64,000 nt of DNA from Leucoraja ocellata (lineage: Eukaryota): positions 868,001-932,000 of the forward strand of contig JAWMAR010000140.1 in assembly GCA_036785375.1 (NCBI GenBank). The letters are read 5' to 3'. Below the pieces are notes generated by a model, which was given only the letters and a program-made list of their open reading frames with translations, searched no databases and was not told the origin of the DNA. Position numbers and translations under genes: made by a program. Of this stretch, positions 1,189 through 63,860 are shown in pieces; positions within the stretch are counted from its first letter, which is position 1; every line of letters starts with the position of its first letter.

Positions 1189-1320
1189 CTGGAGAAGGGT
1201 CTTGATCCCGAAACGTCACCCATTCCTTCTCTCCAGAGATGCTGCCTATCCCGTTGAGTTACTCCAGCAATTTGTGTCTTTCTTTGTTTTAAACCGCCAT
1301 CTGCATTTCCTTCCGACACA
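1189..1320 (+). mobile_element. Penelope-like terminal (pLTR) unit with degenerate hammerhead-like core
   Basis: ctggagaagggtcttgatcccgaaacgtcacccattccttctctccagagatgctgcc...gagttactccagc, the motif repeated throughout the window. Confidence 0.75.
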
Positions 1321-1554
1321 CTTCTCTGCACCGGTCCTCCAGATTCAGGATTCAAACATGCACATAGACGTCTGAATTTACCGGTGGCAACTCACAAAGG
1401 TTTTGCGAGGAATATTCAGGTTTGAGGGTTGGTGTAGCAGAAGGGAATGGCTTAGTCAGCTGTCAAATTTTCTTCAGCTATGTTGTTGAGAGGTTAGTCT
1501 GTCCTCTCCTCCACATCTGCCAACATTGAATCACTCTCATTAAATTCTGTTAGA

Positions 1555-1963
1555 GATTTTAGACCAGACTTTAGACCTTAGACACCAGGCCCACACCGAC
1601 CAGTGATCCCCACATACTAGCACTATCCTACACACACGATGCCAAATTAAAAATTTTACCAAACCATTTAGTGTACAAACCTGTATGTCTTTTGGAGAAG
1701 GTACACAAAATTGCTGGAGAAACTCAGCGGGTGCAGCAGCATCTATGGAGCGAAGAAAATAGGCGACGTTTCGGGCCGAAACACTTCTTCAGACTCGAAA
1801 ACTGGCGATCTCTGAGAAAACATCCCTATGACATGCAGTCACAGGGAGAACGTGCAAACCCCATAGTCAGGATCAAAGCATCATAGCACCCATAGTCAGG
1901 ATCAAACTCGGGTCTCTAGGGCTGTGAGACAGCAACACTACCACTGCGTCATCATGCCACCCA
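1555..1963 (-). mobile_element. HE1-type V-SINE interrupted by a Penelope pLTR unit (~1698-1795, minus)
   Basis: Matches other SINE copies (cactatcctacacacac, caggatcaaactcgggtctc). Nested gctggagaaactcagcgggtgcagcagcatc...gacgtttcgggccgaaacacttcttcagact. Confidence 0.75.
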
Positions 1964-2308
1964 AAGAGATATTACATTTTAGATTATTCATATAAAGTAG
2001 CTTTAAGCAGCAAAGAGGTGACATGCATGTGTCTGAACATATGTTTTAATCTTTAAATCAATATGTAATGATAATTTAAATATTATCCTGTTGAGCGTTC
2101 TGCATTGTACAAATCAATTCTTGGGAAAGTGAAGAATTTGTATTCAGTAGAAAACCCTTCAGCTGAGTCATGGCTCTCTTGCTGTGCAATATAATATCAG
2201 AGATGTCAAAAGGAATTGGATAAACTCAGAGTAGTGACAATTGTTTGGGTGTTCGAATAAGCATATATCTGTAAATGGTTGAAGAGGTGTGCATTATTTA
2301 ATTATATA

Positions 2309-2778
2309 TTTTTTAAAAAAAAATAATATTTTTATTAGAAGCAGTGTACAAAAGTATAAACCACGGCATATGACGTAATACTTTTATTGTACAGTTTCCA
2401 TTTTGATTTTACTAAAGATGAAATAGAAAAAGAGAGAAAGAGCAAGAAAGAAAGAAAGTGAGAAAGAGAATGGATATGTAAGAATAGAACCACTTAACTA
2501 CCAAATGAGTGTAATCAAAGAGTGAGTGAGTAAAAACTTAAAAAAATAATAAAAAGACAAAAACTAAAAAAAGGACAAAAAAACAAAGTGTTGATATACC
2601 TGCTTCATTTCTCATCACACCCAACACCCAGTCCATAATTCAGTTTAATTCCAAAGTTGTGTTGCACCATACTATCTTTGTAATGAATCAATGAAAGGAG
2701 ATTATATCTTTGAAAATTGCTCTGATTTTCCTGCTAAGACAAGTCTCATATTATCAAGATGTAACGTCTCAGACATGT
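2309..2778 (-). mobile_element. Older L1 3' fragment (ORF2 C-terminus plus 3' UTR)
   Basis: Minus strand translates MSETLHLDNMRLVLAGKSEQFSKI*SPFIDSLQR*, resembling the L1 L.LEK.R...F.KIW.PF terminus. Followed by a pyrimidine-rich UTR and AATAAA/A-rich tail. Confidence 0.65.
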
Positions 2779-3659
2779 TTTTAATTTTTTATTGAGTACG
2801 GCTCATTAATACTTTAAAGCGTTTGCAAAGCAGAGTGAACACTTTCAGGACTTGTTTACAAAAATCATGTTTTTCATTTTTCTGTCAATTGAAACTACAA
2901 CATGGCTGGTCCCCGTGGGAAGCACAATGTTTTATTTTAAATCACGTAGATTCTTGACTTAAATCCCAGAAAATGTAAAGCATGAAAATGAGAAGGAAAT
3001 AAGGATCTTGATGTGGCAGAACTTTGGAAAAATACCGAGAAAGAGATATTTGTTTGAACATCCCAAGCCAGTCCCACCCACTGCAGTAATAAACTAACGG
3101 TGATGCTAATAATAATAGGAACATTTGAGTTTTTGCCATTCAGGCTCAAGTTTTAATGGAGTGAATTTGAATAGGCATTTTATCACAAATGATCACTCAA
3201 GGGTATTTAAACAAGTCAGTTTATGTGTTAAATCTTTAACCTCCTTGTTATGCAGACTATTATAAATTAATTAGATATTATTAGATGCAGTTAAGACCTG
3301 TATGAAATGGTAAATGGAGAATTATTGCACCCAACTGAGAGGTTACATGATATCAAAACGACACGTTATCCAAGACTAATGGAGTCTTGGCTGAGCAAAA
3401 AAGCTGATTCAAGATTTTAATTTCAGAAATACCAGCCTTTATTTTTGTAAATGTTATTTTCCAATAACAATTTTCTCTTCTGGTCTCCCTATCCTTTTCT
3501 CTGTGAGATAGAATGCAGCGATGGACTAGCTCCTGATTTTTATTTGGTTCAGATTATATATAGAAGAATGGAACAACAGTCTCTGAAGACTGTGGGACTA
3601 ATGGACTAGCATTAGTTGGAAATGCTAGTCCAATAGCAAGTTTTGGATAGAGCCAAGCC

Positions 3660-3958
3660 TTATCCACGTGGAGAGGATGGTTCCACTAGTGGCAGAGTCT
3701 AGGGTGAGAGGTTATAGCCTCAGAATTAAAGGACATTTCTTTAAGACGGAGAAGAGGATAAATTTCTTTGGTCAGAGGGTGGTGAATCTGTGGAATTCTT
3801 TGGAGGCCAAGTCAATGGATATTTTTAAGGCAGATATTCTGGGGAGAAGGCAGGAAAATTAGGTTAAGAAGGAGCGATAGATCAGACATGATTGAATGGC
3901 AGAGGAGACTTGATGGGCTGAATGGTCTAATTCTGCTCCTATCACTTATGACCTCATG
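3660..3958 (+). mobile_element. CR1/HER1 LINE 3' fragment
   Basis: ORF 3668-3862 ...ESRVRGYSLRIKG..FKTEKRINFFGQRVVNLWNSL; 3' tail gatgggctgaatggtctaattctgctcctatcacttatga. Confidence 0.85.
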
Positions 3959-6572: not shown

Positions 6573-6915
6573 CTCGTAGATACCTTGGGTTTTTTTTAAA
6601 GATTGTAGCAATGTTCTGAGTTGTGCAAATGTATAATGTGAATATACTCTCCTTCGGTATCTACATGTAAAGTACTCTAGTGCTAATAATGCTGCCCTAA
6701 ATCACTTAAGCAGCTACCAAAGCAAGTCAACTCCGTCCCACCCTTCACCTGGCCTCATTGAACATAGACTGCAACTCCATTTACTTTCCATTCTCACAGG
6801 CCATGGAATTCAAAATCAACAATGTTGCTAATTATTTAAAACTCCCCTTTCCTCTCTCTTTCTGAGCTGCCTTTGGCAGTTCTTGCCCTTGACTTTTCCA
6901 ACTGATCTCTGTTGA

Positions 6916-7113
6916 TAGATGCAAAATGCTGGAGTAACTCAGCGGGACAGGCAGCATCTCTGGGGAGAAGGAATGGGAGATGAAGGAAGTCTGAAGAAGG
7001 GTCTCGAGCCGGAACGTCACCCATTCCCTCTCTCCAGAGATGCTGCCTGTCCCACTGAGTTACTCCAGTGTCTATCTTCAGTTTAAACGAGCATCTGCAG
7101 TTCTTTCCTACAC
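6916..7113. mobile_element. Inverted (fold-back) Penelope pLTR dimer with perfect 15-bp TSD
   Basis: Minus unit 6916-6982 followed by plus unit 6988-7113. TSD actgatctctgttga at 6901-6915 and 7114-7128. Confidence 0.85.
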
Positions 7114-11195: not shown

Positions 11196-12107
11196 TATTG
11201 TTATCCTGTAAACTGACTCAACATTTGATTTAATTAATCCAAGTGCTTCAAATCAATTCCAACTAAGCTTACACAGGAGGCTATTTTTGAGGGTGCATGT
11301 GCTTAATTAAATTCAGGATCAACTGGGACCTTTTGAAGTGAGGGGTTTCTGAGGTTGAAGAGTACTACAAAATTGGGAAGTGTTCCTCTTGCTTTCTTTC
11401 ACACCAGCTTTGTTTGCCGAGCTCTGATCCGTGCGATAGAGTTACTGTCCCAGGATTTTCTACTACAGTGACACCACCTACAGTTTGTCTTGATAGCGGG
11501 TGACTGGATTTTAAGTAAATGGGTGAAGCCACATCCTTATCTCCAAGCTAATTTATCATCATTGTAGAACATGACTTTTTATGTTCTGTCAACAGTTATT
11601 AAAAACCTGTATAAAATTCATGTCGATATTTCAAAGTGAATTGCTGTGCAAATGTTTCAGTGTTCATTAAATAGGAATAGGTTGTGTTCATCAGGGAAAG
11701 GGTGCATTACTTTTATGATTCTATAATATCTGCATTATGATCGTCTCATCATTCTGGATGTTTGAAGGATGGCCTTCATATCCCACTGCTAAGTGCCATC
11801 CGAAGGATCTCCTTGACTAATAATGAAAGCAGTCTGCACAAGAAGTAATTTAGAACAGGAATGAAAGGACTTTAATTGGACTCAATGTTACTTGCAAAAT
11901 GGTTCACTGCCAATGGAACTCTACTCTTGAAAGCGTGCAAGTAATAGTTCAATTCAGAATAAGTTTCACTGCTATAAAGTAATAGGGAAGAGGTTTTTAT
12001 TGTGCTGTGTCTCAAACACAAGGCAACATTTTCAAAAATATTCAGGAGCAAAAACATTTTAATTTTGTAAAATATTCAATTTTATTAACTATATCAATGG
12101 GCAAGGC

Positions 12108-12200
12108 TGGAGAAGAGGGGTCTCGACCCGAAATGTCACCCATTCCTTCTCTTGAGAGACGCTGTTGGCCCCGCTGAGTTAATCTGGCATTTTGTGTCTA
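12108..12200 (+). mobile_element. Penelope pLTR unit
   Basis: ggggtctcgacccgaaatgtcacccattccttc...ccgctgagtt...ttttgtgtcta. Confidence 0.75.
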
Positions 12201-13378
12201 TTTTTAGGTTATTTTCCTGTCCAGCATTGATTACATGATGTCCACCACTTGCTTCTACTCTGAGAAGGAATTAAACAAGATGGACCTGTAATAAAATTAA
12301 GTTGACAATGGTGTTACCTTCTCCGTAACATCCAGTGGATTATTTTTGAGAGTTCTGGTTCCTGGCAACTTCAAAATCCAATGCAAGGAGGCAACAGATG
12401 GGAATGCTGACAAGCTAACATTGCAATCAGCAGATAGGAATGCTAAGCTTGAATATTGGTGAAAGCGCGATGAGCAGGATAACTGCAGACTAATGAGCAT
12501 TCACTCTGGATGTTGTGCTGAATGGGATCACCTGATGGAATTAGTGATGTAACTGTTTAAACTCATATTAGATGCTGTAGAAACATGCAAACAACTGACT
12601 GGATATTTGAACACTCAGGCACAGAGGGAATCCCATCTGCAACACCCGTGCATGCAGAAGCCATGTCCTTCCATGTAAAACCAACTAGCTTCTCCTGTTC
12701 TCTTTGCAATGGAAGTCATTGCTGTAGCCTGATCCCACCTGCAAATTGATGTCCATGTGCTGACATTGTTATGAGACATGTTAGCACATTTAAACCAGTC
12801 ATGGCTGGTGCTCATCGACAGAAGGAATCCTTGACCATGGTTGCACCAGAGATCCTGCCACATGACTGAAATGTTGTTGCCTGCTTCCAAAACTCAAAAA
12901 AGCAGGAGCTAATCTCAAGCATGTAGTTGAGGTATTTACTATCCCTTACAACATGCTTCTTGTCAAACTTTCCAATTGATCTCCAGCTGGGTCAAATTTC
13001 TGAAATATGTAATAAGGCTCCATGCAAACGTCGATCTTTACTACACTTTCTTTGGAGATTACTTTCCTGATTGCCATCTTATTAAATTGACATTTTTTTC
13101 CTCTGTTCCGTTCAGCATGAAGGCGGGCAGTCTCTTGGTTCTGCAGGACACGTTTCTCGATGTACGTGAAATATTCCTACACGTTGTTCAGGATTGATTT
13201 AGCGCTTCTAATAAAATGATATACATGAGGCTCCAGGCATTTATGGGATAGAGTGAGCAGGAGTGTGCTTAGGCCATATAGGGGCAGAGCAAGCTTCAAC
13301 TCCACCATGTCTCATCCATCTACCTGCAGCCGATCTGCTGCCTGCAAAGATTGGGCTGGTAGAGGTGAGCCATTGTTT

Positions 13379-13733: not shown

Positions 13734-14542
13734 TTATTTGATTGATTTAAACAAATTGAAGTTCAATGCCTGGAGGTGATCATCGACAATTTGAGGGGAA
13801 ACACGGCCATGATGTGGGTGGTTGGTTATATTTTTGTACATTTGCTTCTAATAAATAAAAAGAAAAAAAGGAAAAAAATGATGTGGGTGGTAAGTGAGCG
13901 AAGATGAGGTGACAGGAGAAGTTTTCATGTAGGGTCTAGCGAGACTCCTGCTCATCATGCCCCCACCGTGGTAAGTTCATCACCTTCCACAGAAGGCCTT
14001 CTTTAGTGTGCTGCCGGCTCCTGTCGAGATAGTTGCCAACAGGGCTGTAAGCAATTAAACTGTCATCAGGATCTTAATGATATTCTGGGGGCCAAAACGG
14101 AATGGGATAGTACATTTTACAAAGTCAATTTTAATTATACAGCTGCCATGTTCTCATTTGGTGTGGTGCGTTAAAATCGCTTTGTCCGGTAATATTGTGT
14201 TAGTAATATAGTGTGTGTGGTCGGGGAGCTCACAACATTATTGCTGCAAGCTTGTTAGGTTCTTGATGGATTGCAAATAGTGGCGACAGTATTAGCATTC
14301 ACTGGCATACATGCTTTATAAAAAATCACACCATTATTGTTTTAAAAATTGATTTTACAGTCAAAATGCCTTCAACTGCCATCATTTATAATTAATCGAA
14401 TCCTGCTCTGAACCACTCATTTTCTCAATAAAATGAATACATTCTGATGAAGTCCGAGTGTATCAATTCTATTATTGTTCTCAAACAAGTAACACAAAGC
14501 TTCTCTATCATAATAGCAAATATTAACCTAATTGTATAAGTA

Positions 14543-15132
14543 TGATTGTCAAAAAGGAACAACAGAGGATGTATTTCCTGCAGCAGCTGAGGAAACACAA
14601 TCTGCCACAGGCAACGATGGTCCAATTCTATACGGCCATCGTAGAGTCTGTTCTCACCTTCTCCATCATGGTCTGGTTTTGGCTAAGCCACCAAACACGA
14701 CACCTGGAGGCTGCAGCGAATCATCCGATCAGCTGAGAAGGTTATTGGCTGCAACCTTTCCTCCATTGACGAACTGCACACTGCAAGGGCCAGGAAGCGA
14801 GCGGGTAAGATCATCTCTGACCTCTCTCACCCTGGCCACACACTCTTTAAATCACTTCCCTCTGGAAGGCGACTCCGGACTGTCAAAGCTGCCACATCCA
14901 GACATTTTTCCACGAGTAGTAGCTCCACTCAATAACCAAAAATCTGTAGCCTCCTTTTGCTCTGGTATTTTATTTAATTCACCTGTTGAATCAATAATGT
15001 TTTATTATTCATGTTTTATGCTTTATGTGTAATTCCTAACTGTCATTGTATGTCATGTTGTCACTTACGGGTGGAGCACCAAGGCAAATTCCTTGTATGT
15101 GAATACTTGGCCAATAAACGTATTCATTCATT
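14543..15132 (+). mobile_element. Rex1/Babar LINE 3' fragment
   Basis: IVKKEQQRMYFLQQLRKHNLPQATMVQFYTAIVESVLTFSIMVWF; ends ggccaataaacgt(attc)n. Confidence 0.85.
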
Positions 15133-16319: not shown

Positions 16320-16662
16320 TGTGTAGGAAGGAACTACGGATGGTGGTTTAAACCGAAGATAGACACAAAATGCTGGGATTAAACCGAAGATAGACACAAA
16401 AAACTCAGCGGGATAGGCAGCAGCTCTGGATAGAGGAATGGGTGACATTTCGGGTAGAGACCCTTCTTCCGACTGAGAGTCAAGGGAGAGGGTGATTCAG
16501 AGATAAGGAAGTGGAAGGTGTGAAAACGAGATATCAAAGGGGGTGGAGATCAAGGAAAATGTAGAATAGATCATTGTTAGCTAGGAGAAGATGACAACAA
16601 AGAAAACTGAGATAAGGCTGGAGAACTGGGAAGGGAGAGGGATGGAGAGAGAGATAAGTTGT
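16320..16662 (-). mobile_element. Penelope (Poseidon-type) 3' region/pLTR
   Basis: gggtgacatttcgggtagagacccttcttccgactgagag plus the purine-rich body seen in the other Penelope copies. Confidence 0.75.
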
Positions 16663-18533: not shown

Positions 18534-18625
18534 ATCCTTTTAGACTGAGGCTGTGGCCTCTGGTTCCCAAGATCCATCCCTCAGGGTAATGCTGGCTGCA
18601 CAACATGTCTGGTGATGAACACAGA

Positions 18626-18912
18626 CTGGAGAAGGGTCTTGGCCTGAAATGTCACCTATTCCTCCTACCCGGATATGCTGCCTGTCCCGTTGAGATACTG
18701 CGGCAGTTGGTGTTTACAGTGTAAACCAGCAGCTGCAGTTCCTTCCTGCACAATCTATTGTGTCTGCTTCTCAGAGGTAGGAAGTAGGAAAAGCTGCTGA
18801 TGACCTCCGCTGTATGTACATTCATTTTCTCCAGAGATGCTGCCTATCCCTCTGAGTTACTCCAGCGTTTTGTGTCTATCTTCGGTTTAAACATCTGCAG
18901 TTCCTTCCTACA
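18626..18912 (+). mobile_element. Two Penelope pLTR units (18626-18752, 18820-18912)
   Basis: ctggagaagggtcttggcctgaaatgtcacc... and ctccagagatgctgcctatccctctgagttactccagc... Confidence 0.7.
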
Positions 18913-18964
18913 TATTACACGGGCCAATTCCATAAGAGTTAAATTCTGTGCTTTCCAGAAACAG

Positions 18965-44259: not shown

Positions 44260-44394
44260 ACTGGAAATCACTATTCTCTTTACAAAATGTAATCGGTAAA
44301 TGGTCAGTGCACTCAAAACAGAGCGCATCAAAGAAACCAACATTTGCTGAGTTTCCCTGCACAAATGCTAGGTTCAAACATCTGCAACCTTTTT

Positions 44395-47158: not shown

Positions 47159-47487
47159 CCTTTACAGCTCCATTGTGAAAATTCCTCATACCAAACACAT
47201 TTTAACAGGAGCCCAGCACTTTAATCTCGCAGAAAGACCAAAAATAAAATCTCCAGATGAAAATAAAATTCTGCAGATGCCAGTAATCTAGAAATCTCCC
47301 AGTGAAACAAAACTGCTGAAAATACTCAAGGGATTTGGTGCTATGTGAGACAAGGAGAGCAAAACAGAGTTAGCCTATTAGGTTGGTAATCTTTCATCAC
47401 AATTTATATGTTATCAACCTGAGCTAGTTTGTTAGATCTCCCATTGCACTGTATGGTCTGTTGGACATCAGTTTTCAGGAAGTATTT

Positions 47488-47860
47488 TATCCAGAGATGC
47501 TGCCTGTTCAGCTGAGTTATTCCAGCATTTTTAGTTTAGTTTTTAGATGCATCGCGGAAACAGGCCCTTCGGCCCACCGAGTCCGCACAGACCAGAGATC
47601 CCCGCATATTAACACTATCCTACACACACACACACTAGGGACAATTAAACATTTTTATATCAAGCCAATTAACCTACAAACCTGTACGTCTTTGATGTGT
47701 GGAAGAAAAATGAAGATCTCGGAGAAAACCCACGCTCTCATGGGGAGAACATACTAACTCCATACAGACAGCACCCGTAGTCGGGATCAACCCCGGGTCT
47801 CTGATGCTGCAAGTGCCGTAAGGTAGCAACATGCCACCCTTCTGTGTCTATCTTTGGTTT
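47488..47860. mobile_element. Penelope pLTR unit (plus) split by an HE1 SINE (minus, ~47532-47839)
   Basis: ccagagatgctgcctg...ccagcattt|SINE|tctgtgtctatctttggttt. Confidence 0.8.
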
Positions 47861-48216
47861 GTTAGTTAGTTAGTTTATTTTATTGTCATGTGTACCAAGG
47901 TACAGTGAAAAGCTTTTGTTCCTTAGCTATTCCTCCTTCTACAGATACTGCCCACATGCTCAATGTCTCCATCATTTTCCGTCCTTATTTTTGGAGAAAA
48001 AAAATGTCAGTTCTTTAATGTATTTTCGTCAATGGAGAAGCTCCATTCCAATCTGAGAAAACGACCTTGTTCAATTATTGCAGCATTGAGCTGTTGGCAT
48101 GGATCCGACGATATAATTGAACGTATTTTGTGATGACAGAAAAAGAAAACTATTTTTTTTGAAATTTGCTCTTCAGTACTCCATTAAAAAAAGAAAAACA
48201 TTGAATAAAACGCTCA

Positions 48217-48480
48217 AGAAGACACAAAAAGCTGGAGTAACTGAACGGATCAGATAGCATCTCTGGAGAAAAGGAATAGAAACATAGAAACATAGAAAAT
48301 AGGTGCAGGAGTAGGCCATTCGGCCCTTCGAGCCTGCACCGCCATTCAATATGATCATGGCTGATCATCCAACTCAGTACCCTGTACCTGCCTTCTCTCC
48401 ATACCCCCTGATCCCATTAGCCACAAGGGCCACATCTAACTCCCTCTTAAATATAGCCATGATGAGACCCTTCTTCAGAC
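48217..48480 (-). mobile_element. Penelope pLTR unit split by a CR1 tail (~48277-48458)
   Basis: gctggagtaactg...gagaaaaggaata|(gaaacata)n CR1|...gagacccttcttcagac. Confidence 0.8.
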
Positions 48481-48906
48481 ATGCTAAGACACCTTCAGAC
48501 ATTCAAAAGGCTCAGCTACTGTAATTTTGTGGCACTGTGATGGCATAATACCCCTTTTGTTGTATAAAAACCCAACAGTGACTAATCATGAGCAATTACA
48601 CTACAGATTCTTTGTCACGTGTGACAGAACGCCGCATGTGTGACACCTGGAATGTACTAGACATTTCATATGCACAGAATTATTTTCACCAAGATTGTGT
48701 TCCCAGATCTCACAGGCTCTGCCGCCAGTTTGAGCATCGGAGGCCCTTGCACATCTTCTTTTCGGCATTTTTTTCCATGATTGGTATCAGGGGTTATGGG
48801 GAGAAGGCAGGAGAATGGGGCTAGGAGGGAGAGATAGATTCACCAAGATTGAATGGTGGAGGAGGCAAGATGGGCCGAATGGCCTAATTCAGCTCCTATC
48901 ACTTAT

Positions 48907-49346
48907 TTTTTTTTAAATTTTATTTTTTTAATTTTATTTTTATTAGAAGTACGGTAAATTACAATACTACACAACACATATATCTTAATACATTTTTTGT
49001 ATCGCTTCATTTTTTTTTGAGCTTTAAGAAAAAGGTAGAAGTAAGGAAAGTAAAGAAAGTGCGCGAGAGTCGTGAAGTGCAAGAGTGTTGGGAAAAGAAA
49101 GCCCCTTAGAAAAGAAGTTAGAGAAGGAAGTAAAGTGAGAAAATAGATCCTAGAAAAGAAAGAAAGAGAAAATAGGAACAATCGCTCTATTATAACATTA
49201 AACTCCGCAGAAAGGGGACTACCAACCAAGTCTGTTTTTGTTGTTTTACCTCCCGTTACCAGGTCCTGATACCACTTATTTATTTATTTGTTTATTTAAA
49301 TTACTATTGCACCTCATACTTGTAATAGGTCCAGAAACATAGACCA
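48907..49346 (-). mobile_element. Young L1 3' fragment inserted in a CR1 tail (48783-48906), 13-bp TSD
   Basis: Minus begins WSMFLDLLQV* (ORF2 end), then 3' UTR and poly-A; TSD tcctatcacttat at 48894-48906 and 49347-49359. Confidence 0.9.
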
Positions 49347-50088
49347 TCCTATCACTTATGACCTTATGACTTTATGATTGTTTTCTACTTAGTCACCACT
49401 TTGTGTCTATTCATTTACTGTTGGAAATCTGGACATCACTCACATTTATTACTCATCTCTAATTTCCCTTGAGAACAGGGTGGTGAGCTGCTTTCTTGAA
49501 CCATTTCAGTCATCAGGTGAAGGTGCTTGTAACCGAGAGTTGGGTTGGGTGCTTCAGGATTTAGCCCCAATAATAGTGAAGGATCAGTGACATATCTTCA
49601 GGTCTCTGGTATTACAGGGTAGCATGATTCCATGCAGTCAGTACTGCAACCTTATTGCCCCAGGGATATGCCTTTGGTTTTAACTTTGGGTGCTTTCTAT
49701 GCATAGTTTTTACATTCTCTACATGTTTATTTGTGTTTCCGTTGAATACGTCAGTATCCTCCCACATGCCATGACACATTTATTAGGTTTAGTAGGTTTA
49801 TTTCATGCTGCTAATTACCGCCTAGTGTAGACAAGCGGCAAATGAGCATCTGAGAATGAACAAGTTGCTGAGATGCAGAAATAACAAGAGAAGGGGAATA
49901 GGATTAATGGTTGCTTTGCGGGCAAACCTTGGGCTTCATGGCCTCCTCTGGTAACTTGGAACTCCATGTGTTGGTTCAGCTTCACCACTGCTATCTACGT
50001 TCCTTAGTGCTAGAGGCTATGGCCTGGATAAGTAACAGTTGTTATACATTGTTGATATACATTGCATCCACAGTTGGTGCAGAGGATA

Positions 50089-50555
50089 AAACACTTTAAC
50101 TCCCACTCCCATTCCCACACTGACCTTTCTGTCCTGGGCCTCCTCCTCTGCCAGAGTGAGGCCTAATGCAAATTGCAGGAACAGCACCTCATATTTCACA
50201 TGGGTAGCCTACATCACAGCTGTATGAACATTGACTTCTCCAACTTCAAGTAACCCTTGTTTTTCCTCTCCCTCCATCCATCCCCCACCCTAGTTCTCCA
50301 ACTAGTTTCACTGTCCTCCTGATTAATTTTACTGTCTGTATGTCTCCTTGTCACTTTCCCCTCAGCCAACAATGAAGCATTGTACATTTCCTTGATCACA
50401 TCTGCTTTGATTTGCCCTTTTCACACCTTACCCTTCTATATCTCTAGTCTCCAGACTCTCAGTCTGAAATAGGGTCACAACCCCAAATGTCACCCATTCC
50501 TTCTCTCCAGAGATGCTCTTTGTCCCGCTGAGTTACTCCAGCATTTTGTGCCTAC
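50089..50555 (+). mobile_element. Penelope (Poseidon-type) GIY-YIG C-terminus plus pLTR
   Basis: HFNSHSHSHTDLSVLGLLLCQSEA*CKLQEQHLIFHMGSL...MNIDFSNFK*, then the pLTR. Confidence 0.85.
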
Positions 50556-50764
50556 GGATGAATATTTGGAGTAGTTGTTGGTATCCCTGTTAAGTAGACA
50601 ACTTTGTCATGGATGGTGACAACCATCTTGTTGGTGCTGCACTCAACCAGGCTAATGGTGAGCATTCTATCGCACTTCTGCCTTTTGTCTGGGTTGGTGG
50701 AAAGGCCTTGGTGAATGAGGAGGAGAGTCTCTCACTGCACGACACCCAACCTCTGATCTTTACT

Positions 50765-51079
50765 TTATAGTTTTAGAGATACAGCGTGGAAACAGGCCCT
50801 TCAGCCCATCGGTTCCGCGCCGACCAGCGATCCCCGCATATTAACACTATCCCACACACACTACGGACAATTTTTACATTTACCAAGGCAATTTACCTAT
50901 AAACCTGTACGTCTTTGGAGTGTGAGAGGAAATCGAAGATCTTGGGGAAAACCCACGCGGTCACGGGGAGAACGTACAAACTTCATACAGACAGCACCCT
51001 TAGTCGGGATCGAACCCGGGTCTCCGGCGCTGCAAGCGCTGTAAGGCAGCAACTCTACCGCTGCACCACAGTGCCGCCC
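50765..51079 (-). mobile_element. Full-length HE1-type SINE
   Basis: Minus: gggcggcactgtggtgcagcggtagagttgctgcc...cccgggttcgatcccgact...ctgtatctctaaaac. Confidence 0.9.
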
Positions 51080-51844: not shown

Positions 51845-52453
51845 GAGGTTGAGTAGGCTGTGACTCTATTCCTTGGAGCACAGGAGGATGAGGGATGATC
51901 TAAAGAGAGGTGTCTAAAATCATGAGAGGAATAGACTGGGTAGATGCTCAGAGTCTCTTGCCTGACGACCAGAGGACATAGGTTTAAGGTCAAGGAGAAA
52001 ATGATTTAATAGGAATCTGAGGGGCAACTGTTACACACAAAGGGTGATGGGTGTATGGAACAAGCTGCCAGAGGAGGTAGTTGAGGCAGGGACTATCCCA
52101 ACATTTAAGAAACAGTTAGACAGGTACATGGATAGGACAGGTTTGGAGGCACACAAAAATGCTGGAGAAACTCAGCGGGTGCAGCAGCATCTATGGAGCG
52201 AAGGAAATAGGCAACATTTCGGGCCAAAACCCCAAGGGTTCATAGATGCTGCTGCACCTGCTGAGTTTCTCCAGCATTTTTGCGTGCCTTCGATTTTCCA
52301 GCATCTGCAATTCCTTCTCAAACCCAACAGGTTTGGAGGGATATGGAGTAAGTGCAGGCAGGTGGGACAAGTGTACCTGGGACATTGTTGGCTGATGTAG
52401 GCAAGTAAGGCCGAAGGGCCTGTTTCCACACTGTATCACTCTATGAGTCTATG
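51845..52453 (+). mobile_element. CR1 3' fragment split by a Penelope dimer
   Basis: GVWNKLPEEVVEAGTIPTFKKQLDRYMDRTGLE; resumes ggatatggag...ggccgaagggcctgtttcc. Confidence 0.85.
52150..52326. mobile_element. Inverted Penelope pLTR dimer (second subfamily) with perfect 13-bp TSD
   Basis: TSD acaggtttggagg at 52137-52149 and 52327-52339; arms gctggagaaactcagcgggtgcagcagcatctatg / catagatgctgctgcacctgctgagtttctccagc. Confidence 0.85.
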
Positions 52454-52992: not shown

Positions 52993-53291
52993 TTCTCTTG
53001 ACTAAGCTAAAGGTCCAGCTGTGAACTACCTCCAACAGTTTCTTCAGAGCATCCTGGCAAATCTCTTCAGCGATCCCATACCTGGCCCAGGCTTGAGTTA
53101 AGTAACTCTATTTATTTCAATGTAGATAAATGATTGCAAAGTGGGGAGGCAACGTTTATTGCAATGTAATTTATATCTTTTAAATAATTGTGTTTTTTTA
53201 CTTCATTATTTTCTAGCATTAAAAAAATCTTTGGACTTCTTGTAAAATAGAAACATTTGTTCTTCATAGGCAATGTGTATTTTTCCATGAT

Positions 53292-54082
53292 GGACACAAA
53301 AAGCTGGAGTAACTCAGCGGGACAGGCAGCATCTATGGAGAGAAGGAATGGGTGACATTTTGGGTCGAGACCCTTCTTCAGACGGGATTAGGAAACGAGA
53401 GATACTGTATAGACGGTGATGTGGAGAGATAAAGAACAATGAATGAAAGATATGCAAAGAAGTAACGATGATCATGATATCAGTCTGAAGAAGGGTCTCG
53501 AACTAAACCATCGCCAATTCCTTCTCTCCATAGATGCTGCCTCACCTGCTGAGTTCCTCCAGTATTTTTTGTCCGCCTTCGATTTTTGAAGCATCTGCAG
53601 TTCTTTCATAAACACGATGATAAAGGAAACAGGCCATTGTTAGCTGTTTGTAGGGTGAACATTAGAATCTACTGCGACTTGGATGGGGGAGGGATAGAGA
53701 GAGAGGAAATGCCGGGGCTACCTGAAGCGAGAGAAATCAACATTCATGCCGCTTGTCTGTAAGCTGTCGAAGCAACATAAGAGATGCTGTTCCTTCAATT
53801 TGCGTTTAGCCTCACTCTGACAATGGAGGAGACAGAGAACAGAAAGTGTGTGTGGGAATGGGAAGGAGAATTAAAGTGTCCAGCAACCAGGAGATCAGGT
53901 TGGTTCAGGCGGGCTGAGCGAAGATCGCAAAACGATCGCCCAGTCGCGTTTGGTCGCGCCATTGTATAAGAGTCCACATCTTGAACAACAGATACAGTAT
54001 ATGAGGTTGGAGGAAATGCAAGTGAACCTCTGACAAACCTGAAAAGATTGTTGGGGTCCCTGGACAGTCGAGGGAGGAGGTA
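53292..54082 (-). mobile_element. Penelope element 3' part with GIY-YIG domain and nested pLTR unit (53473-53613)
   Basis: QRFTCISSNLIYCICCSRCGLLYNGATKR..LGDRF..AGHFNSPSHSHT (GIY-YIG with CxxC); nested unit flanked by acgatgat at 53465-53472 and 53614-53621. Confidence 0.9.
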
Positions 54083-54635
54083 TAACGATGTTTCGATGTT
54101 TTGGATGACATCTACACTGTAAATGCATCGATTGTAATCATGTATTGTCTTTCTGCTGACTTGTTAGCAGGCAACAGAAGCTTTTCACTGTACCTCGGTA
54201 CACATGACAATAAACTAAACTGAACTAAACCGATTTCAATATTGACAGCCAGTCTAGCCTGAAGTCATGGCTCAACTTGGTGACAAAACCATTCCCAAGG
54301 GAAGGCTTGGGTTTAAATCAATGTTGTTTATAGCCCGAAAGCCATGTAAGGACATCAGCAACCATCACAGTGCTAGCTTCATAGAATGAATTGGAAATCC
54401 AGGCAAAGTCTCCAAGGGGCAAGACATCAGTGAATGTAGCCAGAATTGAGCTTCCCGAGCGTGACACAAAAATATTTTAGGCATTGCAATTGTTTCATAT
54501 CAGTGACTACATTGTAATTAATATTAATTGAGAAGCACTTTCAAATTAAAGTCAATACTTGGGCAGTGTTTTTGCGTTGGTCGGTGCCTCATACCCGCAC
54601 ATACATACGCCATGTCAGCACTATTATGGTCAAAA

Positions 54636-55690
54636 CCATATAAAATTCTTAAGGGATTGGACAGGCTAGATGCAGAAAAAATGTTCCCGATGTTCGGGGA
54701 GTCCAGAACCAGGGATCACAGTTTAAGAATAAGGGATTTGCCATTTAGGACTGAGATGAGGAAAAACTTTTCACGCCAGAGAGTTGTGAATCTGTGGAAT
54801 TCTCTGCCACAGAGGCCAGTGGAGGCCAATTCACTGGATGTATTTGAGAGAGAGTTAGAACTGACTCTTCGGGCTAACGGAATCAAGGGAAATGGGGAGA
54901 AAGCAGGGCACTGATTTGGATGATCAGCCATGATCTTATTGAATGGCGGTGCTGGCTTGAAACATAAAAACATAGAACATAGAAACATAGAAATTAGGTG
55001 CAGGAGTAGGCCATTCGGCCCTTCGAGCCTGCACCGCCATTCAATATGATCATGGCTGATCATCCAACTCAGTATCTCGTACCTGCCTTCTCTCCATACC
55101 CTCTGATCCCCTTAGCCACAAGGGCCACATCTAACTCCCTCTTAAATATAGTCAATGAACTGGCCTCAACTACCCTCTGTGGCAGAGAGTTTCTGAGATT
55201 CACCACTCTCTGTGTGAAAAAAGTTCTCCTCATCTCGGTTTTAAAGGATTTCCCCCTTATCCTTAAGCTGTGACCCCTTGTCCTGGACTTCCCCAACATC
55301 GGGAACAATCTTCCTGCATCTAACCTGTCCAACCCCTTAAGAATTTTGTAAGTTTCTATAAGATCCCCTCTCAATCTCCTAAATTCTAGAGTGTATAAAC
55401 CAAGTCTATCCAGTCTTTCTTCATAAGACAGTCCTGACATCCCAGGAATCAGTCTGGTGAACCGTCTCTGCACTCCCTCTATGGCAATAATGTCCTTCCT
55501 CAGATTTGGAGACCAAAACTGTACGCAATACTCCAGGTGTGGTTTCACCAAGACCCTGTACAACTGCAGTAGAACCTCCCTGCTCCTATACTCAAATCCT
55601 TTTGCTATGAAAGTCAACGTACCATTCGCTTTCTTTACTACCTGCTGCACCTGCGTGCCTACTTGAAGGGCCGAATGGTCTGCTCCTGCA
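54636..55690. mobile_element. CR1 (plus) with an inverted young CR1 (minus, 54962-55661) inserted in its tail
   Basis: ORF 55069-55650 minus: LYRVLVKPHLEYCVQFWSP...RRLRGDLIETYKIL; TSD cttgaa at 54956-54961 and 55662-55667. Confidence 0.9.
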
Positions 55691-55804
55691 CCTATTTTCT
55701 GTCTCTATGTTCCAACAGCGCGTGCACATGGAACGCTGGCTGGACATCTGCAGAGGAGCTGATTGTGATCAGCTGTTCTGCTGTTGAACATCAGTGGCAA
55801 CAAG

Positions 55805-56270
55805 TGCAGAAAGGAACCACAGATGCTGGTCTATACCGAAGGTAGACATAAAGTACTGGAGCAACTCAAAGAGTTAGGCAACTTCTCTGGAGAAAAAGGA
55901 TGGGTGACGTTTTGGGTTAGGACCCTTCTTTAGATGGAAAATCGAGGGGAGGGATCACAAGGTAAGAAAAGGCCAGAACAAAGCAGGGCCAGCAACAGAT
56001 GACCAAGGAAGGGTGGAGCCCATAATGGCCCATTGTTGAGTGGAAGAGGTGATAACAAAGAGATACAAGGATGTGAATAGTAGAACTAGTAGGGCAACTC
56101 AGATGGGGGAGAGGGGACAGAGGGAATGCAGGGGTTACTTGACATCAACATTCAACGTTTCGGCTCGAAACGCCACCTATTTCCTTCGCTCCATAGATGC
56201 TGCTGCACCCGCTGAGTTTCTCCAGCATTTTTGTGCACCATCAACATTCACACTGCTGGGTTGTAAACTG
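55805..56270 (-). mobile_element. Penelope 3' part with an 84-bp nested unit (56155-56238), 12-bp TSD
   Basis: TSD catcaacattca at 56143-56154 and 56239-56250. Confidence 0.8.
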
Positions 56271-56785: not shown

Positions 56786-56927
56786 TGGGAGGAGAAATCA
56801 AACTAACATTTCACATTGAAGACCAAACCTTTAACCCTATTTCTCTTCTCACAGATACCGCTTGACCTCTTGAGTATTTCCAGTGTTTACTTTTTTAAAT
56901 TTTAGATTAAACACCTACATTAGAATA

Positions 56928-57348: not shown

Positions 57349-59788
57349 TCTTTTATTCTAAAAGGCTCTTATCGTATCTGCCTCCAACACCACCACGTGC
57401 GTTCCAATTCCCCACTGCTGTCTGTGTAAAAACCTGACCCGCTCATCTCCATGGAACTTTCCCTCTCTCACCTTATAGTCATGCCCCCTATCAATGCCTC
57501 TCATTGTTTTATACAACTTCTATCAAGTCTCCCCTCAACCTCCGATGTTCTGAGTTTCGAGAATGGTATCCATGTTTGTGAGGGAGTTAGCCACATGAGA
57601 ATTCTACAAGACCTGCCCGCCTCTCTCCGATTGTCTGTAATGCTCTCTCCCTTTGTCTACTCTGCACAGTGTGCCCCACTGTCACTCCAGGCAAGCCATC
57701 AGACCGGAACAAGTTGCAGACCATAGTCCTCAGGGACATGTGTCTTCTCCCTGATTTCCACAATCTGACAGGAAGAGTACGTCCTTTTATTCTAAGGCAC
57801 AGATTCTTGATTAGTACGGGTCTCAGAGGTTATGGAGCGAAGGCAGGAGAATGGGGTTAGGAGGGAGAGGTAGATCAGCCCTGATTGAATAGCGGAGTAG
57901 ACTTGATGGGCCGAATGGCCTAATTTTGCTCCTATCTCTTACGATCACCCAGAGTGTTTCAGGAGCAATCGGCCTTTATCTTCAGTAAGAAAGTATTTGT
58001 ATGAAGCTTGTGCTTCAGTAAGGATGCCCTCATTGTATTTTGCCTCCTAGAGGTGTATGCAGGCTGCCCCAGGTGCAGGCTGGCTTGAGACACCTAGAAT
58101 AACTACTGTAACTGGTTATGGCCACTCATGTTGCATACCCTGCAAAACCTCTATTTACAAGCCATTAATCTGCATACTTTATCCCACAGAAATATTTCCC
58201 TTGCCACATTCTATGCCTATCGCTACAACGCTCTTACTTCATCCTATCATAAGATGCACAAAGTATGAAATATTATAAAATCTACAACACAAGGTAGATG
58301 TCTCTATCAGTCCTTTATCAGTGTGCTTAGAACAAGCACAAGGGCATGATTTACGCAGGATTATGGACATTTTAGTTCAGTTCGTTGGGGAAACAACAGG
58401 AACATATGAAGTCACCTAATCCCATATCACTGTGAACATTGTACCCTGGGCAGAATAAACAGCTGAAATGGTTACAGTCAATTGTACTTGCCAACAAATT
58501 CAAATTCAGGTAATTGAGTCATTGGGGGCTGCACTGGATAGGAGCAATAAGTGGGAGCTGCAATATCAATGTGTAATAGCTCACATTCTGATGAACCGAG
58601 GTAGGCTTGTGTGGAAGTTTGGCTACCAAGTCGTTACCATGATTCAGTTCCCAGCCAGCACTAATTGTGCTGTTGATTGCCTTATTGCATCACCGTGGGG
58701 TTCAATTTCATGAGCAATTAGCACCAGTTTGCACTGCTTAAAAATAAATAGCCTGCCCATCTTTTTTTTTTTAAATGGGGCCGCAGCAAGCAATGGGAAT
58801 TATTCTGGACATAACTGCAGCTTTATTGAGGCGGGACAATGCAGAAGAAATCACATAGCCTGTTCGGTAATAGAAGTGGATAATTCTTCCTACTATTAGA
58901 TGTTGCCTCTGTGTGTGTGTGTGTGATGAACATTGGCTGTGTTTTTCAGGTCTAGTTTGGCAGCATTGACTTCAAATCAGCACTGCGTGCTGACTGATGT
59001 TGCAGTATCTCTGCTTTACATATGCCTGGTGCGTGAGAGTGTCAGATGCACTAATACTCATCCCAAGCAGCTGGAGTGACTTGCATTATAAATATGCATT
59101 GGGCACTTTCCTTGCCAAATTGGAAATAAATTACTACCTGTAATAGCAGTCTGCCAATGAGGGATATGCATCCAAACTTGGAAGCCTTTCTCCACTAATG
59201 TGCATGATTTTTTTTAAATTGTTCCTCTCCATGTCAATCTATGTAGATACCCATTTTTTTTTACTGGGTCCACATCAAAAGGATTTGATTCTTCCTTCCC
59301 CCCCACCACATTAAAATGTACATTGTGTCAGTTCTCAAGGGGAAATGCGTATGATGTTAACATTGAAAGCCATTTCTCTTCCTATTGAAGTCTAAGTACG
59401 TGTGTGGGAGATTGCAGTAATGGAAGAAATGTGTTCATTTTACCTGAGAAGTCACAATGTAAAACTCTTTTATAAATGCACTTGAATAAGATAAACTGAT
59501 CCTTTATCTCTGTCCATTTTCTTTCCTGATGACCATATCCCTTGATTAGGGTACTAACCAAAAGTCCAACAGTCTGAGTTCACCAGCCAGACACACTTTC
59601 CATTGAAAACAGCTCCTTGACATTCATTCTGTCATGCCCTAATGAGGTTATCTTACATTCTTTGAAGATCAGTGTTTCCTCAGGAGAACACCTTCACATG
59701 CAAGGACTCAGTCAAATGAACGTGTGCTGTCCTGCCTCAAAGGTAACTCTATATTTCTTTGGGTTTGGAGACTGTCACTACACACACT

Positions 59789-60289: not shown

Positions 60290-60421
60290 GTGTATGATGG
60301 AACTGCAGATGCTGGTTTACACCGCAAATAGATACAAAATGCTGGTGTATCTCAGCGGGACAGGCAGCATCTCTGGAGAGATGGAATGGGTGACATTTTG
60401 GGTCAAGACCCTTCTTCAGAC
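60290..60421 (-). mobile_element. Penelope pLTR unit
   Basis: ggaactgcagatgctgg...gggtgacattttgggtcaagacccttcttcagac. Confidence 0.75.
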
Positions 60422-61267
60422 ATTTCCATTTAGTTGTTTTATTTTTTCTCTATTTGTCCTACCTTACATTTTCCATCTGTTAATTTCTTACTCATTATCC
60501 ACTATCCTTTATGTCTTTTTCATAGCTCCGATTATCACCTCACTCACTATCATCAGCAAACCTGAATGTACTGCACTATCCTTATATCTATCACTGATAT
60601 ACACTGTAAATTTCTGAGACCTCATTACTGATCCTGTCACTAAACTACTATCCATGTTAATATTATTATTCCGACCACATGAGCCCTTACTGAGTGTAAC
60701 AATTAAATGCATTTTGAAAATTGAGACAGGGCACTTTATTCTCCTTTATCTATTCTGCTGGTTAAACTCCCTAAAATGTTTGTTACGCTCTCTAAAATCG
60801 CTTTTAAACTTGTCAAATGTGATTTCCCTTTTATAAACTTATCTCATTTGACTCCACCTCATCTACAACTTTATGTGCCCTATTACCATGTCCTTCATAG
60901 TGAATTCCAATATCTCCCCAACAAATGTCATCTATAGATGGTTTGTATGTCCTGACATTGTCTTTCTTCTTGAAAAGCAATTCCACGATTGCTATCACAT
61001 CTTTTAGGCTTTTCTGGAATCTGGGAATGTTTGAAAGATGATCACTAATGGATTCACCATCCCTGAAACTACGTATTTAGGAAAGCTTGGAAGTAATCCT
61101 TGAGGTCCATGGGGTTTTGCTGGCTTTTAGTCCTCCTACCCTCTCCAATGGTTTCTCTCCATATTGTCCAAATTACTTTAGGATTCTCACACTTGATGAA
61201 CTCTCTGCTCCCCAATATTTCCAGGGAAAGTGGAATAGTCTCCTTCTGTGAAGGCAAATAAAAAAGA

Positions 61268-61893
61268 TGGGTAACTGTTATATTTGATATGGAAGGTGGA
61301 GGGGCAGGTAGTGTAGAGAAAGCAGGGACTCTGCAGAAGGACTTGAGCAGGTGGGAGATTTGGCAAAGAAGTGGCAGATGGAATACAGTGCAGCAATGTT
61401 TGGAGTCATGCAGTCATGTATTTTGGTAGTAGGAAAAAAGGAGTAGACTATTTTCTAAATGGGTAGAGAATTAAGAAATCAGAGGTGCAAAGGGACTTGG
61501 GAGTGCATGATTCCCAAAAGGTTAAGTTGCAAGTCAAATCAGTAGTAAGGAAGGCAAATATAATGCTAGCATTTATTTTGAGGGGAATAGAATGAGCAGA
61601 TGCTATAACCTTAGAATAAAATGATATACCTTTAGAAAGGAGATGAGGAGGAATTTCTTTAGTCAGAGTGTGGTGAATCTGTGGAGTTCATTGCCACAGA
61701 AGGCTATGAAGGCCAAGTGAATAGATATATTTTAAGGTGGAGATTGATAACCTCTTGATTAGTATGGATGTCAAGGGTTATGGGAAGAAGGCAGGAGAAT
61801 GGGGTTGAGAGGGAAAGATAGATCAGCCATGATTGAAAGGCAGAGTAGACCTGATGGACCGAATGGTCTAATTCTACTCCTATCACTTATGAA
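61268..61893 (+). mobile_element. Decayed CR1 3' portion
   Basis: Degenerate LQKDL...KWQMEY...QRDLGV motifs, then FFSQSVVNLWSSLP and the standard tail. Confidence 0.8.
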
Positions 61894-63039
61894 CATATTA
61901 ATGCTACAACAACCCCTGCAATGTTTGAGTGTCCTTTGGCATTTCCTTCTGAGTCCTCACAATTGCATTTTCGTGGAAATATCCACCCACTTTTCACAAT
62001 TGGGAAGATTTCTAATCCAAGGGCTGCTTTCTTGAACACAATATGTCAGAAATGTCCTGCATATGAGTCTGAATCTTGGACTCCGGCATCTATATAAAAT
62101 AATCCTGCACTATTTTGTGTCCATGTCAGTTTACCATGAGTCAAGGATTTGTTGCAGTTTTTTGTTTAGTTACAGAAATTGTGCCTGAATATAATATTCA
62201 TAACTCTCCTGGAAATCAGGCAGGATTGAGACTTATCAATTCTGAGCCAAAATTCCTTGAGCTGCAAACACCAAGTGAAAAGATGCTCACCTTTAGATTA
62301 TTCTGCTTTCTATCAATGTCCACTCACTGCAGGTACAATAATTCCACAACCACAACATTAAGACAATTATGGATAAAATCTTCTTTTCATCAGGGCCCAC
62401 AACCTTATTACCTCATTACCATTAGTTTTGAATCATCCATGTTCAATGAATCTGTTCCAGCCAATTATCTGGGATACTAAAGCTACTTGTTTACCACTTT
62501 ATAGTACTGCAGTATTAAATTCCAAGTTTAAGAGAATTCAACTAAATCAAATATAATTTGTATATGAACATAAAATCATCCCCTGACTCACAAAACTTTG
62601 TACCAATATGATCGTGAACATCTTTCATTAGTTTTCTCTTGGTGTATTTTGATGATAGAGCGGAAATGTGTACAGTGGTCACGGATCTCTTTATAACGGA
62701 TTTTGGTTATAACGGACTGACTTGCCGATGGCTGCCAAAGCCATCCCTGGCTCTCGTCACCACCCTGGCCACTTGCAATGCCAGATGCCTGTAAGTTGCT
62801 ACCAACTCGTGCCATGTCCCTGGCTGGCAGTTACCTGTATGCCATCCCCCCTCGCACTGCCTCCCTGGCCCCTTGCAACCCCAGCTGCCTGCATGCCACT
62901 ATTGGCTCGGGCTACCTCCCTGGGTACAGGCACCACACATGCCACCCACACCCAGGCTCACGGTATTTCCCTGGCCGCCAGCTGCCCACACACCAACCCT
63001 GGTTCTTGATTATGCTGGTGGCCTCGCCGAGGCACTATG

Positions 63040-63762
63040 AAGTTTAGATGGATTCAATGGAAAGGAGGTTGGTTTGTGTGATGGTCTAGATTGCATCCAC
63101 AATTCTCTGCAATTTCTTGAGGTCTTGAATGGAGCCGTTCCCAAACCTCGGTGTGCTGCATCCCGATAAGATGGTTTCTACAACGCATTTTTAGAAGTTG
63201 GTGAGCGTTGTTGGGGACATGCCGAACTTCCTAAACCTTCTGTGGAAGTAGAGGCATTGGTGTGCTTTCTTGGCCACTGTGTGGCTGGTCCAGATACGTC
63301 GCTGGTGATATTTATTCCTAGGAACCTGAAGCTTTCATCCATCTCTACTTTGGCACCATCAATGTCAACCAGAATCTATGCACTGCTTCACTTCCTGAAG
63401 TCAGTCACAATCTCCTTTGTCTTGCTGACATTGTTGGCTTGGCACCAGATAACAAGGTTCTCCATCTCCTTTCTGGATTCCGTCTCATCTTTATTTGATA
63501 TCTGGCCCACTACAGTGGTGTCGTCTGTGAACTTGGAAATTGAGTTGGATTGGCATTTCGCCACACAGTCATGAGTGCACAAGGAGTATAGAAGGGGGTT
63601 GAGAACACATCCCTGCAGGGCACCAGTGTGGAGGATTATCATAGAGGATCATTTGTCACCTATCCTCACCGATTGTGGTCTGTTGGTCAGGAAGTCGAGG
63701 AGTTGAGTGCTGACTCCAAATTCAACGAGTTTGGAGATGAGGTGGGTTGGGATAATGATGTT
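63040..63762 (-). mobile_element. Rex1/Babar RT fragment
   Basis: ORF 63388-63642: GALQGCVLNPLLYSLCTHDC...KFTDDTTVVG...SKTKEIVTDFRK; upstream [14 protein letters not shown]. Confidence 0.9.
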
Positions 63763-63767
63763 GAAAA

Positions 63768-63860
63768 CAGAAGATAGACACAAAAAGCTGGAGTAACTCA
63801 ACGGGACAGGCAACATCTCTGGAGAGTAGGAATGGGTGGCGGTCAGGTTGTGACCCTTCA
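63768..63860 (-). mobile_element. Penelope pLTR unit
   Basis: aagatagacacaaaaagctggagtaactcaacgggacaggcaacatctctggagag. Confidence 0.7.

Follow-up and report, generated by a model that had tools for sequence, protein, structure and literature searches.

Minimal hammerheads that occur scattered and singly, 'probably related to truncated PLEs', as well as pairs on opposite strands, were reported from metazoan Penelope-like elements (PLEs) in 2014 (PMC4209133). PLEs may carry an optional tail of 30–40 bp (PMC8557442), which in the anole element lies between two internal starts of reverse transcription shown in vitro (PMC11167929). Animal retrozymes are tandem arrays in which every unit has a hammerhead; cleavage releases monomers, which become circular (bioRxiv 2026.07.22.740005; PMC7229834). 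The mode of Penelope transposition and the role of the hammerhead are called unclear in this literature (PMC11167929; PMC8557442). The present analysis concerns a family of short repeats with a hammerhead-like core in 64,000 nucleotides of Leucoraja ocellata (assembly GCA_036785375.1, contig JAWMAR010000140.1, positions 868,001 to 932,000), hereafter the window, to which all copy counts and all tandem and core tests refer. With a probability of about 0.75, the repeat unit is the end, or pseudo-long terminal repeat (pLTR), of a Penelope-like retrotransposon of the Neptune type, which inserted it many times with its own reverse transcriptase (RT) and GIY-YIG endonuclease, and its copies are now decaying neutrally. 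Dispersed PLE hammerheads (2014) and the pLTR origin of animal retrozymes (2026 preprint) are known already, and the family itself is ordinary. As a dense family, it offers a large natural sample of insertion geometry.

The repeat unit and its Penelope coding remnants

A profile search with the unit identifies 38 segments in the window, 21 on the forward strand and 17 on the reverse strand, whereas five Markov shuffles of the 64 kb give 0, 0, 1, 0 and 0 matches. Grouped by our own judgement, the segments represent 29–30 insertion loci, or about one per 2 kb. These figures agree with an earlier note, made from the sequence alone, which had proposed about 30 short units at ~2-kb spacing on both strands. 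The unit measures ~100 nt without its tail and ~134 nt with it, close to the 100–140 nt given in that note. Two stem II variants, likewise proposed there, are both present, and the minor one (1795 −, 52232 − and 56157 +) groups with 94/94 support. Divergence from the consensus of the young copies has a median of 13.6% (35 segments), and four segments belong to an older related family lying 20–32% from that consensus. The window as a whole has 42% G+C and is ~29% self-repeated.

Upstream of the unit, five copies continue into a 3' untranslated region rich in pyrimidines (UTR; cores at 16471 −, 44164 +, 50464 +, 53381 − and 55933 −). Three or four of these reach the end of an open reading frame (ORF), and two keep endonuclease coding remnants. 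The unit is therefore most plausibly a pLTR end. The five long copies are:

53288–54085, − strand: longest 5'-truncated Penelope copy, with a frameshifted C-terminal GIY-YIG remnant (~53721–54085), pyrimidine-rich 3' UTR and tail-less unit; core at 53381; broken up by a nested unit (53481–53613)
50089–50556, + strand: 5'-truncated Penelope copy with ~50 last endonuclease codons (E 4e-14), 3' UTR and tail-less unit; decayed core at 50464
43746–44260, + strand: 5'-truncated Penelope copy with ~16 last codons, 3' UTR and tail-less unit; core at 44164 with a GCC cleavage site; contains a nested short unit
16321–16655, − strand: copy with ~180 nt of 3' UTR, unit, tail and an internal duplication
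55804–56242, both strands: copy reaching the ORF end, with 3' UTR and tailed unit (55804–56155, −), plus an inverted partial unit without tail, from the minor subfamily (56157–56242, +)

A tblastn search with one relative, P0001, places endonuclease coding at 53730–54077 (−; E 3e-21), and tblastn also places it at 50077–50247 (+; E 4e-14). Back-searches with the relatives return 53721–54164 (−) and 50047–50250 (+), with two weak single matches elsewhere, and a profile of 61 full-length relatives confirms both places (E 4e-18 at the longest copy). The coding remnant of the longest copy is matched by 143 of 151 relative proteins. For the frame at 53898–54137 (−), P0001 was the one relative among 16 candidates, and a larger library yielded 226 at E ≤ 0.001. 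A Pfam scan of the window's own endonuclease fragments gave nothing relevant, and the identity of the endonuclease is therefore drawn from the relatives. These match PF01541; six were scanned, showing GIY-YIG in five and RVT_1 as well in two. A cysteine-rich linker between RT and endonuclease, which marks Neptune and Nematis elements (PMC8557442), is visible in all five relatives inspected for it (P0001, P0014, P0071, P0104 and P0128).

The Penelope origin claimed in the earlier note is thus borne out by endonuclease coding upstream of the unit. That note had placed GIY-YIG sequence upstream of the unit at three positions, of which 50089 is confirmed. Position 53292 proved to be the unit itself, with the coding at 53721–54085, and position 43750 has only the ~16 last codons, seen by DNA similarity and not by tblastn. 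The unit was also considered as the N-terminus of an ORF, with its open frame and an HxxFL-like word; the best match to a profile of 61 full-length N-termini had an E-value of 0.044, and this candidate was rejected.

Ends of the units and the mode of insertion

The 3' ends of the units are bimodal. Sixteen of 32 fall at positions 88–105, none at 109–123 and the other 16 at 128–134; four old-family and two interrupted segments are left out of this count, and the unit model itself ends at 134, yet downstream flanks differ among copies. The two classes, ~35 nt apart, agree with the optional Penelope tail of 30–40 bp. Inverted pairs occur at seven loci, with the tail on a single arm in six, and the two classes of 3' end form their outer ends, as would be expected if both target strands prime. 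Besides 55804–56242, the pairs are:

6912–7113: + arm alone tailed; perfect 15-bp target-site duplication
23870–24087: joined at a near-palindrome around the unit 5' end; + arm alone tailed
24348–24725: another repeat between the arms; − arm with the intact core 24586–24613; tail pieces at both ends
26872–27091: − arm with the best core, 26944–26971; + arm alone tailed
41554–41711: truncated arms, − arm alone tailed; 10-bp duplication with one mismatch
52147–52319: minor subfamily, + arm alone tailed; perfect 13-bp target-site duplication

At 55804–56242 the long copy and its adjoining inverted partner are of different subfamilies, which suggests that the template was switched from one RNA to another or that an older copy received the insertion. 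Three miRNA-like Rfam matches (6938, 23893 and 52165) fall on inverted unit pairs, which fold as hairpins.

Target-site duplications above the 95% null are found at 9 of 24 loci, including perfect ones of 15, 13 and 11 bp, and two of the nine are of low complexity. Two short units are nested in the 3' UTRs of long copies. The remaining units and fragments of the young family are:

43851–43974, + strand: short unit with tail, nested within the 3' UTR of 43746–44260; flanked by a 7-bp repeat with one mismatch (by eye, under the script threshold)
53481–53613, + strand: short tailed unit within the longest copy, nested on the opposite strand in its 3' UTR; 10-bp duplication, one mismatch
60290–60421, − strand: short tailed unit; perfect 11-bp target-site duplication, with 6 extra bases at the 5' junction
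30781–30909, − strand: short tailed unit; 7-bp duplication of low complexity
63764–63861, − strand: short tail-less unit with its start inside the core; duplication of 8 bp
1188–1320, + strand: short tailed unit with decayed core
1695–1795, − strand: short tail-less unit of the minor subfamily; intact boxes, stem II mismatch
12107–12206, + strand: short tail-less unit
18622–18751, + strand: short tailed unit
18819–18913, + strand: tailed unit truncated 3' of the core
23416–23517, − strand: short tail-less unit
24996–25044, + strand: unit fragment adjoining another repeat
47486–47531, + strand: core-less unit fragment
48216–48279, − strand: core-less unit fragment

Two copies carry six extra bases between the duplication and the unit 5' end (53475–53481 and 60420–60427).

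The 5' ends are concentrated at one place. Among 32 young segments, 12 end at positions 8–47, 15 at positions 1–5, none over the next 170 nt and five beyond. Of the 20 segments reaching position 5, 15 end 0–4 nt before the core, corresponding to a hazard of 18% per nt within the spike against 1.0% per nt before it (p 2e-11). The non-inverted copies alone place 9 of 14 ends in the spike (p 4e-8). Identity to the long copies is 10, 11, 10 and 8 of 12 at positions −1 to −4, and falls to 3 of 12 at −5. Beyond the inverted arms, and with the exception of one weak pair, the upstream flanks of the short copies resemble neither the long copies nor one another. Together with the duplications that flank several copies, this pile-up upholds the earlier claim that the short units were inserted at their present length.

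Truncation of 5' ends at random, or deletion at a later time, could in principle yield such copies, the pile-up being due to chance, to an alignment artefact, or to pausing or fold-back of the RT at the near-palindrome. The 12 scattered ends at positions 8–47 and the five far upstream are of the kind this would produce, the profile starts at the pile-up by construction, and one inverted pair joins exactly at the near-palindrome. However, the sharp drop in identity at −5 and the dissimilar upstream flanks are at odds with it, the duplications show the length of the copies at birth, and in a scan test constant hazards gave 0 of 20,000 up to 2% per nt and P ≤ 0.001 at 3% per nt. We regard this explanation as unlikely.

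The boundary of the pile-up sits on TCAGTC, which we take to fit the initiator consensus. Run-off of the RT at an RNA 5' end is the likeliest cause, at about even odds. An internal promoter is known in D. virilis Penelope (PMC2377424). An RNA beginning at TCAGTC could form a helix I of at most 3–4 bp, which fits a passenger ribozyme. The boundary might instead be a splice acceptor, with spliced RNA as template and homology that stops at an intron boundary. In all five long copies the 56 nt upstream are 73–80% pyrimidine, CAG stands just before the unit's TCTG in three of the five, and an intron in D. virilis ends at the 5' side of helix I (PMC4209133). In the short copies, however, the AG is kept (10 and 11 of 12), no common upstream exon is found, and several have duplications at or within 6 nt of the boundary; splicing seems unlikely. 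An RT stop at a branch point was rejected, since the ends would then lie several bases upstream of those seen. No description of this family, or of a 5' pile-up at a hammerhead edge, was found in the open literature, with Repbase, Dfam and subscription papers outside the scope of that search.

A SINE-like explanation (SINE, short interspersed element) differs from a pLTR origin with run-off only in the template RNA. Here the units would be a non-autonomous family of short copies with an internal promoter, copied in trans by Penelope protein and forming lineages of their own. The fixed 5' end is consistent with this, several copies having a duplication that abuts it or lies no more than 6 nt away, and so is the proportion of segments starting at the fixed point (15 of 32, compared with five long ones). 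The minor subfamily comprises three short copies and no long one in the window, the D. virilis element has its internal promoter (PMC2377424), and pLTR sequences suffice in cis for trans-mobilisation (PMC3846280). Against it, the five long copies occupy five places among the short ones in a tree of 26 of the 38 segments, the 12 left out being too short (5 changes, shuffled mean 4.7). The fixed start is seen in more than one subfamily and so does not trace to one master. With no tRNA gene and no match to a tRNA family in the window, a tRNA-type SINE was rejected for want of a tRNA-like head. An independent short lineage, one way to read the earlier note's proposal that the unit is mobilised alone, is possible, although we consider it doubtful.

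Observed directly are the endonuclease linkage, the two 3' ends ~35 nt apart, the inverted arms and the target-site duplications. Under the pLTR reading, the endonuclease would nick the target and the RT would likely start inside the RNA at unit position ~100 or ~134, giving tail-less and tailed copies. Priming on both target strands would give the inverted pairs, with one of the two start sites at each outer end. If the template RNA begins at the initiator-like TCAGTC, for which the odds are about even, copies would stop 0–4 nt before the core. Priming on a 5'-proximal pLTR would then produce a run-off cDNA of fixed length, 100–135 nt, and priming on the 3' pLTR would produce the randomly truncated long copies. 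The hammerhead core would be a passenger inherited from the pLTR, with unit ends that are not set by it. More tentatively, Penelope may make a fixed-length, 'strong-stop'-like product of 100–135 nt that integrates by itself and that, with its own promoter, would be a self-propagating SINE-like derivative with a decayed ribozyme; we think this possible rather than probable. If it were true, the units would be a genome-wide fossil record of a transcription start and two RT starts, and a plausible precursor of tandem retrozymes.

Several points weigh against this reconstruction. A profile of the 61 full-length relatives detects no RT coding in the window, the copies being truncated within or after the endonuclease, and the 64 kb contain no direct pLTRs around an ORF and no full-length copy; the tandem layout and the start site are consequently not seen. 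The cysteine linker has been lost from the window copies by truncation, and the Neptune assignment leans on the relatives. The 5' starts are hand-curated, the 5-nt window was picked after viewing the data, and at a constant hazard of 5% per nt the scan test gives P 0.02–0.07. Initiator-like words are frequent (YYANWYY 12 per kb, TCAKTY 1.7 per kb), and the TCAGTC site, following a pyrimidine tract, resembles a splice acceptor too. Fifteen of the 24 loci have no duplication above the null. Monophyly of the long copies has an approximately unbiased test value (p-AU) of 0.126; long and short copies are intermixed with no well-supported branch, and the tree is weak either way.

The hammerhead core

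The family consensus fits the minimal PLE hammerhead, with both boxes, stem II and a palindromic centre. Among the 21 segments that reach the core, four have both boxes and two are fully intact, with stem II and ACGT as well. The earlier claim of a minimal type I hammerhead-like core holds for the family consensus and for these two copies. Of the four cores it had singled out, 26944–26971 (−) and 24586–24613 (−) keep the boxes, a pairable stem II and ACGT, but that at 44164 reads GCC and that at 1792 has a stem II mismatch. The best core, 26944–26971, combines both boxes and ACGT with a 4-bp stem II and a 2-bp helix I. An exact search for both boxes returns 15 matches, 5 of them inside the unit repeat. 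A T-to-C change at the essential U of the cleavage triplet is seen in 5 of 26 copies, from two subfamilies (units 41636, 43851, 44161, 56157 and 63861).

The realistic form of stem II is 4 bp with a 4-nt loop. In a 5-pair version, four pairs vary on one side and none on both, and the pairing was equalled in 115 of 500 shuffles. The published PLE hammerhead descriptor has a helix I of at least 3 bp (PMC4209133, supplement); no site in the window passes it, and two do so when helix I is relaxed to 2 bp. A comparison with Rfam, as the earlier note had suggested, gave no hammerhead among the 13 matches in the window (E ≤ 1) or among the 5 around the best core (E ≤ 10). Extra conservation of the boxes relative to their flanks, the absence of which the earlier note had named as refuting its retrozyme-like reading, was not found. 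In the main subfamily, with CpG and five variable columns excluded, mismatches number 18 of 188 in the boxes and 131 of 1417 in the flanks (9.6% and 9.2%; p = 0.89). The missing covariation and box conservation are expected for neutrally decaying copies, and as weak evidence say little about the parent element.

Folding of 14 copies gives a predicted stem II probability of at most 0.07 in 13, apparently mostly because a longer hairpin buries the core. A hammerhead dimer is predicted at −2.9 kcal/mol, compared with −24.7 kcal/mol for the best dimer fold. Of five units, four have unremarkable folding z-scores and one has −2.1. Such models leave out tertiary contacts and protein help, and the anole ribozyme needs protein to cleave (PMC11167929). 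Given these limits and the neutral decay after insertion, the parent element may therefore still have had an active hammerhead. On its own, the unit's hammerhead is predicted to be probably inactive, given the 2-bp helix I and the competing hairpin. The older related family bears on the history of helix I:

30299–30349, + strand: fragment, 20% from the young consensus
31163–31255, + strand: 29% diverged; decayed boxes; 4-bp helix I (AGTC/GACT) by eye
32745–32842, + strand: copy, 27% diverged
56836–56888, + strand: fragment, weak match (E 0.002)

The 4-bp helix I at 31163 suggests that this helix was lost in the younger family, and its decay suggests that the ribozyme was dispensable for the insertions described here.

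The earlier note had called the units retrozyme-like. On such an explanation, ribozyme-cut monomers would circularise and then reinsert. The unit forms no tandem array in the window, being absent from all 34 tandem-repeat rows, and most unit ends lie off the cleavage site; the label is not sustained. The nearest same-strand cores, 310, 452 and 648 nt apart, represent separate or nested insertions, and the 310-nt pair is a nested insertion with both cores broken. Four segments do start at 29–36, near the cleavage site at 32/33, the sole hint of cut templates, but the units as a rule begin before the core and are not permuted at the cleavage site. The minimal type I core, intact in 2 of 21, agrees with a retrozyme, and animal retrozymes derive from pLTRs, occur as monomers too and include one chondrichthyan among the positive species (bioRxiv 2026.07.22.740005). 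Opposed to this are the 2-bp helix I with no copy passing the descriptor, boxes no better conserved than the flanks, the lack of any two-sided change in stem II and the weak hammerhead dimer relative to the best dimer. A retrozyme is, on this evidence, very improbable.

Other repeats in the window and comparison with known systems

A second abundant dispersed repeat of ~300 nt is SINE-like and comprises families D5, D7, D11–D13, D19 and D20. Further sequences outside the Penelope family include the following:

44387–44630, 36815–37081, 50765–51050, 21388–21607 and others: ~300-nt SINE-like repeat
3812–3954, 25436–25578, 48769–48911, 57805–57947 and 61753–61895: 143-nt dispersed family D10
24395–24581 and ~24940–24975: another short repeat with shared ends that interrupts or adjoins Penelope units, possibly a miniature inverted-repeat transposable element
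46481–47161 (+), 55069–55704 (−), 54528–54914 (+) and 18971–19192: C-terminal ORF2-like fragments of long interspersed elements (LINEs)
54634–55355: two CR1-like fragments in opposite orientation
14527–14733 (+): Pfam match to ALKBH8_N (E 5.5e-12)
39545–39680: run of 136 N, an assembly gap

The C-terminal LINE-like fragments (46481–47161 and the others), without a Pfam match, are presumably of CR1 type. The ALKBH8_N model, as we understand it, often matches the ends of fish LINE ORF2, and 14527–14733 probably belongs to a LINE and not to a host exon. No host gene was identifiable among the 300 of 341 non-repeat ORFs scanned, which gave one Pfam match.

Among described systems, animal non-LTR retrozymes (PMC7229834; bioRxiv 2026.07.22.740005) resemble the units in being short, non-coding, pLTR-related and dispersed as monomers with a type I hammerhead. 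Theirs are, however, tandem with complete hammerheads, whereas the window copies are single or inverted, with degraded cores and Penelope tails. A relative of the unit might be among the shark retrozyme families of the 2026 preprint (bioRxiv 2026.07.22.740005). Putative non-autonomous PLEs, such as MRC1 of Chlamydomonas (PMC8557442) and those of Heliconius (bioRxiv 596502), are likewise short and non-coding and share the 3' end of an autonomous PLE. Unlike them, the window units form no head-to-tail multimers, and they are doubtful as an independent lineage.

Metazoan PLEs have minimal hammerheads (Cervera and De la Pena 2014, PMC4209133) that share with the unit the CUGANGA box, an extra base, stem II, GAAA-NN-UH and the palindromic centre. 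These hammerheads too occur mostly as scattered single motifs and as opposite-strand pairs. The unit differs in its 2-bp helix I (descriptor minimum 3; Schistosoma 4–5) and in its predicted competing hairpin.

In the anole Poseidon element PAc (Frangieh et al. 2024, PMC11167929), two internal RT starts downstream of the hammerhead define the tail and both target strands are nicked and extended. The two RT starts and two-strand priming proposed here agree with this sole in vitro study. Insertion in vitro does not require the PAc ribozyme, which needs protein in order to cleave (PMC11167929). Judged by the linker of the relatives, PAc belongs to another clade, and its ORF starts in stem II, whereas the unit showed no significant similarity to ORF N-termini.

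The window copies also resemble endonuclease-bearing (EN+) Neptune-type Penelope elements (PMC8557442; PMC3846280). The window differs in having no full-length copy, and a sharp 5' pile-up at the hammerhead edge goes unmentioned in the available text of those papers. That boundary predicts an RNA start and bears on whether short units can propagate alone. In other respects the resemblance is broad: a C-terminal GIY-YIG region that precedes the pLTR, pronounced 5' truncation, partial copies in inverted orientation, a 30–40 bp tail at one end, variable target-site duplications and solo pLTRs.

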